A stretch of DNA of 64,000 nucleotides from contig CAVSLC010000025.1 of NCBI GenBank assembly GCA_963728565.1, positions 64,001 to 128,000 of the forward strand, read 5' to 3'. Below are positions 34,554-38,700 of this stretch, piece by piece. Below the pieces are notes generated by a model, which saw only the letters and a program-made list of their open reading frames with translations, ran no database searches and was not told where the DNA came from. Each line of letters starts with the position of its first letter. The first letter of the stretch is position 1. The position numbers and the translations under genes are program-made. The stretch is from an uncultured delta proteobacterium (GTDB taxonomy: Bacteria > Desulfobacterota > Binatia > UBA9968).

Positions 34554-35292
34554 TTTTTTTTTTTTTTTTTTTTTTTTTTTTTTTTTTTTTTTTTTTTTTT
34601 TTTTTTTTTTTTTTTTTTTTTTTTTTTTTTTTTTTTTTTTTTTTTTTTTTTTTTTTTTTTTTTTTTTTTTTTTTTTTTTTTAAAAAAAAAAAAAAAAAAA
34701 AAAAAAAAAAAAAAAAAAAAAAAAAAAAAAAAAAAAAAAAAAAAAAAAAAAAAAAAAAAAAAAAAAAAAAAAAAAAAAAAAAAAAAAAAAAAAAAAAAAA
34801 AAAAAAAAAAAAAAAAAAAAAAAAAAAAAAAAAAAAAAAAAAAAAAAAAAAAAAAAAAAAAAAAAAAAAAAAAAAAAAAAAAAAAAAAAAAAAAAAAAAA
34901 AAAAAAAAAAAAAAAAAAAAAAAAAAAAAAAAAAAAAAAAAAAAAAAAAAAAAAAAAAAAAAAAAAAAAAAAAAAAAAAAAAAAAAAAAAAAAAAAAAAA
35001 AAAAAAAAAAAAAAAAAAAAAAAAAAAAAAAAAAAAAAAAAAAAAAAAAAAAAAAAAAAAAAAAAAAAAAAAAAAAAAAAAAAAAAAAAAAAAAAAAAAA
35101 AAAAAAAAAAAAAAAAAAAAAAAAAAAAAAAAAAAAAAAAAAAAAAAAAAAAAAAAAAAAAAAAAAAAAAAAAAAAAAAAAAAAAAAAAAAAAAAAAAAA
35201 GCTCGAAGAATATTTTTTTTTTAAAAAAAAAAAAAAAAAAAAAAAAAAAAAAAAAAAAAAAAAAAAAAAAAAAAAAAAAAAAAAAAAAAAAA
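34554..35292. repeat. Poly-T (34554-34681) then poly-A (34682-35200 and 35223-35292), probable assembly/polishing artefact
   Basis: Seen directly; hundreds of identical bases. Confidence 0.9.
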
Positions 35293-36242
35293 TGGGGCAG
35301 AGCACTTTCTATGCTCTGAATGATGTCGTCTTAGAGTTTAATTCGGAAGGGCTACTAGAGGAAATAGATAGGCTCCTCGGAGAACTGTACTGGGCAGCAA
35401 TATGGAACTATGGCTTCTCGTCGTCTTTGTACCTATCGGTTCAATAGAACTCAGGTAGATTTAGCATTACACTAACTTGTAGTGAAGCACTTCGGACAGA
35501 AGAATTTTGAGGGTTTGAACTAGACGATAATTTCTTATTGAAAGATGGCTCATAGGTATTTCACCTAAGAAAGCAAGCAGGCAAAGAGTATGAGAGGATA
35601 GCTACTTCTTTTTTTTGTAAGAAGAAGATGGCGCAGGCAAACTTCTGGTGCTTTGGACTGCTGAAGCTGTTGAGGAAACTGGGTGTCTATAGATTCATGA
35701 GGCAGGGCTTGTCACTAAAGAAGGAGAAGGGTTTAGTGGCTTCCGGGGCATAGAGCCGCTTTAACTCATTCGCTGTTATACCCCTATGATGTTTTAGGTA
35801 GGGTTAGAAAGGGATAGAAGTTTTGGTATGAAGGTGGAGATTTTAAATAGAAGAAGTAAGATAGGTAGATTATTAAGATTTTTGAATAGGAGAAGAGGAG
35901 AAGGATTATAATGGTGGGAGGAGGAGTAAAGTTGGTATTAAAGAAGATTATAAAGAGAAATATATAGAGTAATATTAGAAGAGAGTAGTGATATTTATAA
36001 AGATTAAAGGTAATTATAAAAGAATGATGAAAAAAATAAATAGAGTTAAGGAGTTAAGATTTATAATAGATAAAAGAGATAAGAAACTGTTAGATAGAAG
36101 AAAGATGTGAGAAAATATGGAAATGATGAAGAGATTATTAAAACAGGTAGAATAGTTTGAGTTAAATGATGGGAATGATATTTATAAAAAGAGAGAAAAG
36201 TTGAGTGATATGATAAAAGAAGAAAGAGGAGAAGAAAGTTGA
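35292..36242 (+). CDS. HPr-kinase-related (HprK-like) protein, sequence corrupted
   Basis: Hand translation: NFWCFGLLKLLRKLGVY / HEAGLVTKEGEG (LHAAG-type motif before a garbled P-loop), later RVVIFIKI and FELNDGNDIY. Confidence 0.55.
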
Positions 36243-37240
36243 AGAGTATAGTAATAGAGATGAATAATAGATGAAAAATGAGATGAGGAAACTGTTTAGA
36301 TGAGAGATATGAGGTAAAAGGAGATATTATTATAAGAATAATGGAAAAAGTGATGAGAGAGGGGAAAGGATGAGGTATAGAGAAGGTGAGATTTAAAGGA
36401 GGAGAGAAGAATATATATAGAAGGTTAAGAGAAATAATAGAGAGTGAAGCAGAGGTTGGATATAAGTTAAGCTTTGTGAGTAAAGGAGAGAGTTTAAAGA
36501 GATAGTATAAGTTGATGCTAAAACAAAGGCTATAGTTTGAAGGTGTCACTTTTAGCTAGGATAAGAGAGAGAGAACAGAAATATGAAAAGCTAAGAGGTA
36601 AAGGATAGTTTTGGTAGGTGATGAGGGAGGAGAGTATATGAATGTTTAAGGAGATGATTTTAAGATTGAACATGGTGATAAAAGCTAAGAATAGGAATGA
36701 GATAGGAGAGATGGTAGTGATAGAGGAAAGGTTTGGCAGAGATGGAGTGAGTTTAGGATATTTGATGAATACTATAGAGATAGATTTGAGAAAGATAGAT
36801 GTATAGAAGAAAGAGAGGAGTGAGATAGAATAAGAAATATGGGGATTAAAGAAGAGAGCTTATATTATTGTTGGAATGGAGATAGGTTATTTAAGTGAGG
36901 TTTTTTTTTTTATTTGTGGTAAGATGGAGATAGAAGAATATAAATTAGACTATAAAGGGAACTTAACTATTTGCTGAGAGATATAAGGAAACTAAGGAAA
37001 AAAAGACAGTACAGAAGTTATAGATAACATAAAGAGGTAAGTATGAAAGAGGTATGTGAGAGCTTTAAAATGAGAGTGGATACTTATATAGCAGATAAGA
37101 GGGAAAAGATAAAAAAGGGAAAGTTTAGCAAGATGGAATATTTTATCTGTTGGTATAGATTAAAATATATAGGTAAGAACTATTGGCTAAGTAGTTTTAT
37201 AAAAGATATATGGAGAGAATAGAAAGAGATATAGAGGAAG
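36239..37240 (+). CDS. Radical SAM protein with Cys-containing C-terminal extension, sequence corrupted
   Basis: IVIEMNNR*KMR*GNC at 36248-36295 restores to IELTNRCNLRCGHC if some A are read as C. FKGGEK at 36392-36409 restores to FTGGEP. Also SFVSKG, VTFS*D, and later GNLTIC* and FICWY. End approximate. Confidence 0.75.
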
Positions 37241-37254
37241 GAGACTAACAAATA

Positions 37255-37542
37255 ATGATAGAAGAGAAGGTTAGATCTAATACACAGGTAGTAGATAAAG
37301 TACTAGATGATGGAGAGGTTGTTCTATTTGAAGTAGAGAGAAAAAATTATTACAGATTAAATAAGAAAGGAGAGAGAATATGGGGAGGACTAAAAGAAGG
37401 ATAGAGATTAAATGAGATAAGAAGATGGCTAAAGGAGGAGTTTGATGTGAATGAAGAAGAAGCTGACAGGAGAGTTAGAGATCTAATTAAGGAGCTTAGA
37501 GAACAGAATATAGAGCTGTATAAGAATAAGGAGAGTTATTAG
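37255..37542 (+). CDS. PqqD family peptide chaperone / RiPP recognition element, sequence corrupted
   Basis: One frame reads VVDKVLDDGEVVLFEVERKNYYRLNKKGERIWGGLKEG*RLNEIRRWLKEEFDVNEEEADRRVRDLIKELREQN. About 95 codons, GAAGGAG upstream. Confidence 0.8.
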
Positions 37543-37592
37543 AAGAGAGTAGGAGAGAAGTTTGTTCTAAAGAGAGAGAGAAGTAAACTGAC

Positions 37593-38700
37593 ATGAACAG
37601 TTTTAGGACTGAAATATATTTGCTTCTAGACTGAGATAGAAAGTGATTGGAAGATAAAGAAGTGAGAGGGATTAGAAAGACTGATCTAGAAAGATATAGA
37701 TTGGAAGTAACTTTATAGCATAGCTAGAGGGCACAGGGTGATGAAGCTATTCTATAGAACTTTGAATTAGAAGTGCTAAGACGAAGTGAGTACAGAGATT
37801 TTACAGGAACTAAGAGAACACTTTTACGAGAACGATGGAAGCAACTTATTTTTAACAAAGGAACTGATCAAGATAGTGGAGTTCTTAGAGGCGCACGGAA
37901 TTTTGTTATTTGTATAAAGGATTTGTTTTGATTCTTAGATCTATGAGAATTTAGTGTTTAGGGAGTTTGTTGATTTGTATATTTTAGTAAGTGAGTGAGA
38001 CTATTTGAGAGCACAATGTCTGCTAGTTGATTTGTTTTTTGGCTCAAGATTGAATATGAATGAGAGAATGAATTTGTAGATGAAAGTGTAAAGATAGTTG
38101 TGTATTTTCACTAGTGTATAGCGCTGCAATATTTTCTTTCGCTGCTCACTTTTGATTATCTGTGCGAGCGCTTTCAGCTTGTCGCTTTGCTTGGTGAAAC
38201 AGCAACTACTTTATGCTAGGAAGATACACTGCTCATGCTCAGCATCTAAGTCACGAAAGATGAGCATCTTCAGCTCTCTAAGATCTGTGACATTGCTAAG
38301 CCTCTGTGTGTATCACTGCTTGAACTGAGCACAGTTGCTAAAAAAAACTTATAATTTAAGAGAGCAGCGAATGCTGTTATATGCTCTATGTCTCGCGAGA
38401 GATCTCTTAAATACGACACTCTCGCAAACATTCATGTAGATGTTATTTCACTGATCTCTCAAAGATCTTGTAAACTATGCTCGATAACAATTGTTCCTTT
38501 AGATGACTCTGTTTACGAGCTACGTCCTGCTAATTGTTTGCGTTAATTTCTGCAAAAACGCCTACGCGACAAATTAAGAGCTTACCACGATTTTTTACAT
38601 GACGTAATAATACCTTGCGAACCAAATCGAAAATCCTTTCCTATGCAAAAATAATTATCCTTTCTCTACTATTTCATTCAATAAATGCAATTATTAAATA
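37593..38700 (+). CDS. Nucleotidyltransferase family protein (NTP_transf_5-like), sequence corrupted
   Basis: RTEIYLLL, DIDWK*L..IARGHRVMKLFY, NLFLTKELIKIVEFLEAHGI, YKG, YENLVFREFVDLYILV (compare YGNLALRxFxDLDILV), EDTLLML...ICDIA. End approximate. Confidence 0.75.

Follow-up and report, generated by a model that had tools for sequence, protein, structure and literature searches.

The 64,000-nucleotide stretch analysed here (the window), from an uncultured delta proteobacterium, contains a damaged gene cassette for a peptide that is made on the ribosome and then modified (RiPP). We consider it rather probable that this is a miscalled copy of an intact RiPP cassette that has no lasso cyclase and works with a family of secreted proteins. 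Sequence comparisons indicate that intact relatives carry six genes, coding for a B2 protease, a precursor peptide, an HprK-like kinase, a radical S-adenosylmethionine (SAM) enzyme, a RiPP recognition element (RRE) and a PF14907 transferase. The cassette is a real RiPP variant that has gone undescribed, and we noticed that it is tied genetically to a domain found at the C-terminus of secreted proteins.

The cassette of the window lies in a miscalled consensus block

Four consecutive coding regions were found on the plus strand, where the original prediction had placed them (Table 1), with a signal well above that expected by chance. Profile and relative matches agreed with its four family assignments (HprK-like kinase, radical SAM enzyme, PqqD/RRE and PF14907), and each of the regions can be aligned, in unchanged order, with intact loci of this family. 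The frames had been said to survive the corruption. The coding regions do so; the open frames do not, with 35 stops of the window falling within open reading frames (ORFs) of the close relative L098, in addition to frameshifts. The kinase P-loop region is short by about 35 nucleotides. L098 and L154, the intact references of this comparison, are short metagenome contigs; L154 is collinear with the window from the enzyme gene through to the undamaged flank. Loss of C alone accounts for 28 of the 35 stops counted against L098 and for 18 of 29 counted against L154. The CxxxCxxC motif read from TGA 36272, TGA 36284 and TGT 36293 aligns to TGC, TGC and TGT in L098 and is therefore real.

The AT-rich block that contains these genes is an assembly artefact, because C is retained at 96 of 554 positions as compared to L098 (356 are called A and 86 T) and because contigs from two other sets of reads restore it. 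The other bases are kept at 91–95% (A 483/507, G 564/602, T 457/501). Within the block, missing plus-strand C is mostly called A or T, and the right end is also short of G. It is unique of its kind in the 4.5-Mb source genome (G000). The contigs, named X1 and X5 and derived from runs of two studies, are about 99% alike to the window in the flank; 103 of 112 differences put C back in X1 and 58 of 67 in X5. This comparison covered positions 30400–34550, upstream of the cassette, and no contig spans both the flank and the damaged zone.

A true hypermutated pseudogene region in the source organism would explain why the loss is strand-biased and C-specific, and it would accommodate the lack of a contig bridging the flank and the degraded zone. 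We hold it to be extremely improbable: the contigs of the two studies, 99% alike to the window in the flank, have C inside the degraded zone, C is mostly called A beside homopolymers of 128 to 519 nucleotides, and another homopolymer sits on a different contig of the same genome. In this second artefact (G000:C26:1212-1409), G97 runs into A101, and the sequence to either side is normal.

Intact relatives and the content of the homopolymer gap

Loci surrounding the radical SAM gene were collected from genomes (80) and from metagenomes (80). Of the genome loci, 58 entered the analysis, along with every metagenome locus and with L014 and L016, which makes 140 loci; the remaining 22 contain distant radical SAM genes and were used as outgroup. 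Gene presence was counted in 50 long loci, in which the radical SAM gene has at least 4 kb of sequence upstream and at least 3 kb downstream. The kinase was found in 48 of them, the RRE in 46, the precursor in 38, the transferase in 37 and the B2 protease in 34, together with a gene for a secretin/TonB N-terminal (STN)-like protein in 14 and a GNAT gene in 7. The closest relatives have genes for secreted proteins first, followed in turn by those for the STN-like protein, B2, precursor, kinase, radical SAM enzyme, RRE, optional GNAT and transferase.

A lasso cyclase had been reported missing from the window, and the wider search agreed: tblastn with five AsnB-like queries gave no match in the 140 loci, and PF00733 (E ≤ 1e-8) gave none in 190 of 207 unassigned ORFs of 330–900 residues, to which 309 candidates had been reduced by clustering and by filtering on composition. 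The B2 protease had been called absent too, and there the relatives disagree, so that the statement is true only of the damaged copy. Intact loci thus combine a B2 protease with no detectable cyclase, and not the pair of lasso cyclase and B2 protease that would have spoken against the prediction.

That the homopolymer gap could conceal a gene had also been anticipated. The interval matching the gap measures 1035 nucleotides in L100 and 967 in L115, as compared to 801 in the window, and in both relatives it contains the rest of the STN-like gene, the B2 gene and the precursor gene. An island of 12 nucleotides in the gap is identical to precursor codons of L165, L099 and L100. It lies 93 nucleotides ahead of the kinase start, the distances in these relatives being 91, 94 and 92 nucleotides; the 12-mer occurs three times in the source genome. 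Codons and spacing to the kinase start both agree with the relatives, and so a precursor gene was present in the gap. A B2 gene was most probably there as well, as judged from synteny alone, and is not readable. Models of B2, the precursor and the STN-like protein had no match in the six frames of the source genome; PF13471 matched once elsewhere in it, marginally, with 26.1 bits in a frame of 499 residues.

By record title, cassette holders include anammox bacteria, Nitrospirales, Acidobacteriota, Trueperaceae and soil lineages, and span many phyla. Distribution is patchy: the enzyme was found in 6 of 90 genomes of the source family and in none of 7 genomes of the same genus. Several related arrangements were seen on the way. 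Loci L011–L013, L015 and L017 are other clusters of PF14907, RRE, kinase and B2 genes, without this radical SAM enzyme and precursor. In L066–L069, L205, L207 and L208, which form a branch of the cassette, the STN-like gene is longer and no precursor was detected by the model. In the source genome, a 47-kb glycosyltransferase-rich locus (G000:C13:3000-50000) has three RRE/PqqD matches, two HprK-like kinases, two Asn-synthetase-like genes, a gene with a radical SAM motif and a PF14907 gene; B2 and a lasso-like precursor were not seen in it.

A lasso-type leader followed by a short aromatic core

The precursor has a lasso-type leader ([W/F/Y]xxPxL ... T) and a core of the form FFGxF[S/T]P. In 25 aligned precursors, the leader residues P, K, L, G and T and the core residues F, G and F are invariant. 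The leader Thr was taken as residue –2 relative to the core, and core starts were set accordingly. Among 63 unique cores, 55 fit F[FLMI]GxFx, and all 55 have Ser or Thr at x4 or x6; the 9 motif-bearing cores lacking one at x6 have it at x4. These counts come from related sequences that are not independent. Predicted cores have a median length of 11 residues, and Cys occurs in 3 of 62. Library models contributed only weak leader matches, such as NF033521, which reached 20.1 bits (cut-off 19) for one of the five precursors scanned.

Two variant cores belong to one genome with two cassettes (L056:8234-8446 and L058:2279-2548). One is acidic and devoid of the FFG motif; the other has two Cys ahead of FGPFSP.

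Lasso cores begin with G, A, S or C and have Asp or Glu at positions 7–9. None of 62 cores fits both parts of this rule, and Asp or Glu at 7–9 occurs in 3. This bears on the idea that the product is a phosphorylated lasso peptide whose cyclase is encoded elsewhere in the genome. B1, B2, kinase and transferase do form a paeninodin-type set, and the source genome has seven PF00733 matches elsewhere. However, the cores, with their median length of 11, nearly refute this idea, and no cyclase was found in the loci; we regard it as very improbable.

The cassette enzymes

Kinase fragments of the window had no family match in the Pfam and NCBIfam libraries. The kinases of relatives match TIGR04352, TIGR04355 and PF07475, all below cut-off, and keep His, Lys and Asp-Asp in at least 85% of 60 sequences. 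These are the residues named for lasso-peptide kinases in the available passages of PMC9266682. In relatives, B2 matches PF13471 and NF033537 (49.4 bits, cut-off 33); it keeps Cys and His, with a hydrophobic N-terminus in 33 of 54 sequences. The best NCBIfam matches of the RRE are lasso PqqD models, below cut-off, and the transferase of an intact relative matches PF14907 with an E value of 2e-65. When stops are translated as X, the window's own frames at 37255 and 37540 score above cut-off for PF05402 and PF14907, respectively.

The radical SAM frame of the window (from 36236) gave only weak NCBIfam matches (best E 2e-4) and none in a word-indexed protein search. With HMMER, it matched 66 proteins at E ≤ 0.001 among 1.84 billion, and the 13 that were fetched are all radical SAM proteins. 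The family comprises 876 proteins at E ≤ 1e-20, and the enzymes of relatives match PF04055. In 34 sequences, C12, C16, C19, C226 and C307 are invariant, and C245, C246 and C304 are conserved in at least 90%. The best of 59 NCBIfam matches reached 88 bits; the 25 shown are all far below cut-off.

The predicted structure of the enzyme (pLDDT 91) is closest to SuiB (Z 25.4), SkfB (23.6), BlsE (23.4), anSME (22.9) and PqqE, in a range of 25.4–21.7. These closest solved folds are mostly peptide maturases, at 15–22% identity to the closest solved enzymes. As judged from this model, fold similarity leaves the radical SAM chemistry unfixed. The enzyme might, as BlsE does, act on a nucleotide or sugar, here one added by the PF14907 enzyme, and not on Phe; the other steps of the mechanism discussed below, namely leader binding, phosphorylation, decoration and leader cleavage, would be compatible with this. 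BlsE is first by Foldseek (E 4e-16) and third by Z, and the radical SAM enzyme has no fused RRE. On the other hand, SuiB has the higher Z, the aromatic core is nearly invariant, and 13 of the 50 long loci contain the enzyme while no transferase was found in them. BlsE-like chemistry is thereby left as an unlikely reading.

An Ig-like C-terminal domain is genetically coupled to the cassette

Genes flanking the cassette mostly code for unrelated secreted proteins, including beta-propellers, subtilase, carbohydrate-binding and choice-of-anchor Q proteins. Many of them share an unnamed Ig-like domain, found 83 times in 49 of the 140 loci. It occurs in 31 of the 50 long loci as compared to 0 of the 22 outgroup loci. 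In the window it forms the 3′ end of a BNR gene beside the cassette, which is the sole copy found in the source genome. Of 120 database proteins, 111 carry the domain at their C-terminus; none has a membrane tail, and 2 have a lipobox. By a crude hydropathy rule, a hydrophobic, signal-like N-terminus is present in 44 of 56 carriers versus 0 of 100 kinases.

The model of the domain (pLDDT 97) is a seven-strand Ig-like sandwich. Structure searches returned common Ig-like matches only, with a best Z of 7.7 and no Foldseek match at E ≤ 0.001. Matches to gamma-adaptin ears (Z 6.5–6.9), domains with ligands reminiscent of an FGxF-like motif, were within background and were set aside. The Pfam and NCBIfam libraries hold no model for the domain; 38 members gave scattered weak matches (E ≥ 0.0015). 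Its invariant columns are G, F and V, and none is Cys, Ser or Thr.

Genomes, excluding the centre genomes, were sorted by whether they have both domain and enzyme, the domain only, the enzyme only or neither. Overall, the numbers are 14, 2, 7 and 657. In the source family they are 3, 0, 2 and 84, and both enzyme-only cassettes reach contig edges. In the order of G116 they are 11, 1, 1 and 78; in the order of G114, 0, 0, 0 and 200, which is uninformative. In the domain-only genome G342, a precursor lies behind the domain gene, at a contig end. Three genomes (G319, G381 and G384) have 21, 16 and 15 scattered domain matches, one enzyme each and one or two precursors. In G381 (contig C10), an orphan precursor directly follows a domain gene far from the cassette. 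STN-like genes precede or follow domain genes at unlinked sites. The Ig-like domain is genetically coupled to the cassette across genomes. That this coupling reflects function is, in our estimation, reasonably likely.

The product could instead be a free RiPP, a signal or an antimicrobial, whose cassette only shares a mobile island or regulon with domain genes, the domain binding, for example, carbohydrate. This would suit the patchy distribution described above, the 7 genomes and 19 of 50 long loci that have the enzyme without a detected domain, and the weak look-alikes of the domain, which are CBM2 and CBM3 clusters (0.82–0.83) and generic Ig folds (Z ≤ 7.7). Yet domain genes are spread over many contigs almost only in cassette genomes, the orphan precursor follows a domain gene away from any cassette, and no conserved exporter or immunity gene was seen among the scanned ORFs of the loci. 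A free RiPP is therefore a minority reading, one that we doubt. It is quite improbable that the enzymes modify the Ig-like domain directly before export, the small peptide being a regulator or a vestige. One cassette facing many domain-bearing targets has the pattern of protein modification, and anSME, which matures sulfatases, is among the close folds; against this, the domain has no invariant Cys, Ser or Thr, the precursor comes with a complete leader and a conserved core, and the role of B2 and RRE is to handle leaders.

Two further arrangements were observed. Some loci of the branch with the longer STN-like gene have a diverged Ig-like domain, as seen in L067–L069 and L205. In Trueperaceae loci (L057:700-9000 and L059:1-9000), the domain is not detected by the model, yet two or three precursor copies alternate with genes for large LRR/DUF11 proteins, three of them in L057; RRE and B2 are not in these loci.

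Features of the window and neighbouring genes

Coordinates are collected in Table 1. In the X1 and X5 contigs, the BNR gene has one extra C each at 32357 and 32553. Upstream of it, an ORF of 242 residues (30544-31272) is without Pfam match. The STN-like gene is interrupted by homopolymers; positions 34354-34491 match, at the DNA level, the same gene in L100, L115, L138 and L027. In the Atlas, its protein fell with unnamed clusters at 0.95–0.96 and with STN clusters only at 0.81, which we take as a lead. Beyond the cassette, an amidohydrolase-like gene on the minus strand (38747-39988) has lost its final codons to the A-rich damage; such a gene also follows the cassette in L154, L106, L107 and L019.

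Table 1. Features of the cassette region (window coordinates).
Feature	Position	Strand	Basis or remark
Large secreted BNR/beta-propeller protein gene, broken by miscalls	31289..34030, end approximate	+	PF02012 E 5e-10, intact 5′ part
Degraded consensus block (assembly or base-calling artefact)	32600..38870		Plus-strand C loss, long homopolymers
Unnamed Ig-like C-terminal domain, about 115 residues	33737..34015	+	HMM (hidden Markov model) E 4.7e-11 across three miscalled stops
Small secreted protein, 5′ part, weakly STN-like	34253..34553	+	tblastn E 1e-4
Homopolymer gap (T128, A519, short island, A70)	34554..35291		Replaces rest of STN-like gene, precursor and, most probably, B2
Surviving precursor-gene remnant, 12 nucleotides, leader codons K-L-E-E just before the core	35199..35210	+	Identity with relatives
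HprK-like peptide kinase	35292..36263	+	tblastn E 4e-40 versus intact relative; coordinates from relatives
Radical SAM enzyme, C-terminal five-cysteine (SPASM/Twitch-type) region	36239..37234	+	Coordinates from relatives
Stand-alone PqqD/RRE, lasso B1 type	37255..37542	+	PF05402 E 1e-13, stops read as X; coordinates from relatives
PF14907 (NTP_transf_5) nucleotidyltransferase-fold enzyme	37593..38782, end approximate	+	PF14907 E 4e-15; coordinates from relatives

Comparison with known systems

The nearest parallels are found among phosphorylated RiPPs. According to the available passages of PMC13381572, the Bacillota systems for linear polyphosphorylated peptides (LPP) have a discrete RRE, a [Y/W]xxP leader, an HprK-like kinase and an NTP transferase and no macrolactam cyclase. 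To these the cassette adds B2, a radical SAM enzyme, the conserved FFGxF core and the partner domain. Neither an SpI-type leader peptidase nor an MsbA-like exporter, as in LPP systems, was seen to be conserved in the loci (Pfam on ORFs of at least 330 residues), B2 taking the place of the peptidase. Phosphorylated lasso peptides, as described for paeninodin (PadeK) and pseudomycoidin (PsmK/PsmN) in the passages at hand of PMC9266682, share B1, B2, a His-Lys-Asp-Asp kinase and a nucleotidyltransferase-fold decorator of phospho-Ser. The lasso hallmarks present here are the RRE (46/50), B2 (34/50) and a leader of the form [Y/W]xxPx[L] that has Thr close to where it is cleaved. In contrast, there is no cyclase and no ring-forming Asp or Glu, a radical SAM enzyme is added, and Ser/Thr is internal in the cores instead of C-terminal. 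From its gene content, the cassette would work like an LPP or a cyclase-less paeninodin-type pathway with an added radical SAM step, while being a member of neither.

Radical SAM aryl cross-linked RiPPs (streptide with SuiB, triceptides, darobactin/dynobactin) resemble the system in their short aromatic core and in SuiB being the closest fold (PMC12257519, in part). Their enzymes also have CxxxCxxC plus auxiliary-cluster cysteines. Here, however, no NCBIfam maturase cut-off is reached, a cross-link is predicted only, and the passages of PMC12257519 at hand describe no kinase, transferase or B2 partner of cross-linked RiPPs.

SynChlorMet and HPr-rel-A/B cassettes have PqqD-like and HprK-like parts and, in the case of SynChlorMet, radical SAM enzymes, whereas the present cassette has a single radical SAM enzyme, B2 and a defined precursor. 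None of ScmC, ScmD, ScmE and ScmF is matched above cut-off. Scores are far below cut-off for ScmF (85/400 bits), ScmC (19–22/125), ScmD (22–24/100) and HprK_rel_A (TIGR04352, 43/200), and TIGR04353 stays below as well (16–18/35). The suggestion in the original prediction of a poorly described peptide-modification system is supported.

In PEP-CTERM/exosortase systems and in type IX secretion with its C-terminal domain (T9SS CTD), one processing cassette serves many unrelated secreted passengers that carry a scattered C-terminal tag. The present arrangement is alike in its many unrelated exported passengers, C-terminal tag and one cassette, G649 and G339 being exceptions. It differs in having as its tag a folded Ig-like domain, which lacks a membrane tail and is covered by neither Pfam nor NCBIfam models, and as its partner a RiPP pathway, not a sortase or a translocon.

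About 300 lasso-type RREs have been noted beside radical SAM enzymes and not described further (PMC7470986). The available passages of PMC12710340 and PMC10885120 give no description of the cassette. Neither the cassette nor the peptide family was found described in the article literature; supplementary tables of radical SAM/RRE surveys could contain the family. For the core motif, among the literature matches listed, only the unrelated string 'gffg' appeared.

A proposed mechanism

Our best reading is that the product is a phosphorylated, decorated and probably cross-linked linear peptide serving secreted proteins. Gene content, order, motifs and co-occurrence were observed; leader binding, phosphorylation, decoration and cleavage are inferred from lasso and LPP precedent. 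The RRE, which co-occurs with the leader motif, would bind the lasso-type leader of the precursor. The HprK-like kinase is then likely to phosphorylate the core Ser/Thr, and there is an even chance that the PF14907 enzyme adds a nucleotide or a sugar to the phosphate, as proposed for PsmN. The radical SAM enzyme would modify the core; a C–C cross-link from one of the conserved Phe rings, locking a beta-strand shape, is the likeliest reaction, though we put it forward tentatively. Removal of the leader by the B2 cysteine protease is very likely, and would leave FFGxF[S/T]P, shortly extended, as a linear product with a median of about 11 residues. Finally, the product would serve Sec-exported proteins that have the Ig-like domain at their C-terminus, and the STN-like protein is a likely adaptor.

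Three-residue rings act as beta-strand mimics pairing with a beta-sheet (PMC12257519, available passages), and such mimicry could be how a peptide of this type engages an Ig-like domain. A speculative extension is that the peptide is a docking ligand of the domain. Equally conjectural is a rigidified phosphopeptide, coupled through its phosphate to a sugar, a nucleotide or an envelope lipid, forming an envelope 'peg' for which the Ig-like domain would be the socket.

Several observations weigh against the proposed link between cassette and secreted proteins, or against parts of the pathway. The domain was not detected in 19 of the 50 long loci and is absent genome-wide in G118. G649 has the domain, and enzyme, precursor and STN-like gene were not found in it. 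In the class of G115 the profile is 0, 1, 4 and 295, the two markers not overlapping at the threshold used; one enzyme-only genome of this class has a diverged domain (30 bits) beside the cassette. Related genomes are not independent, 11 of the 14 with both markers being from one order, and some positive genomes contributed rows to the models. On account of this kinship and of these shared rows, Fisher values for the genome profile come out too strong. B2 was not found in 16 and the transferase in 13 of the 50 long loci, and no conserved exporter was seen among the 190 scanned unassigned ORFs. Of the 63 cores, 8 are off-motif by the pattern used. The precursor has no evident signal peptide, which leaves the route of the product to exported proteins unexplained. 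Foldseek ranks BlsE, a non-peptide enzyme, first.

Systematic base miscalls over several kilobases can conceal an entire cassette in a public genome. According to PMC13381572, it is not known what phosphorylated RiPPs decorated by a transferase do biologically; the very short conserved core with its genetically coupled candidate partner makes this question directly testable. If the peg reading is true, it would also suggest what the kinase and transferase, an unexplained module in paeninodin and LPP clusters, are for. One RiPP pathway would then dock as many as about 20 secreted enzymes and adhesin-like proteins of different kinds, a RiPP-built protein display. The coupling is a hint that proteins may be docked outside the cell in a way not recognised so far.

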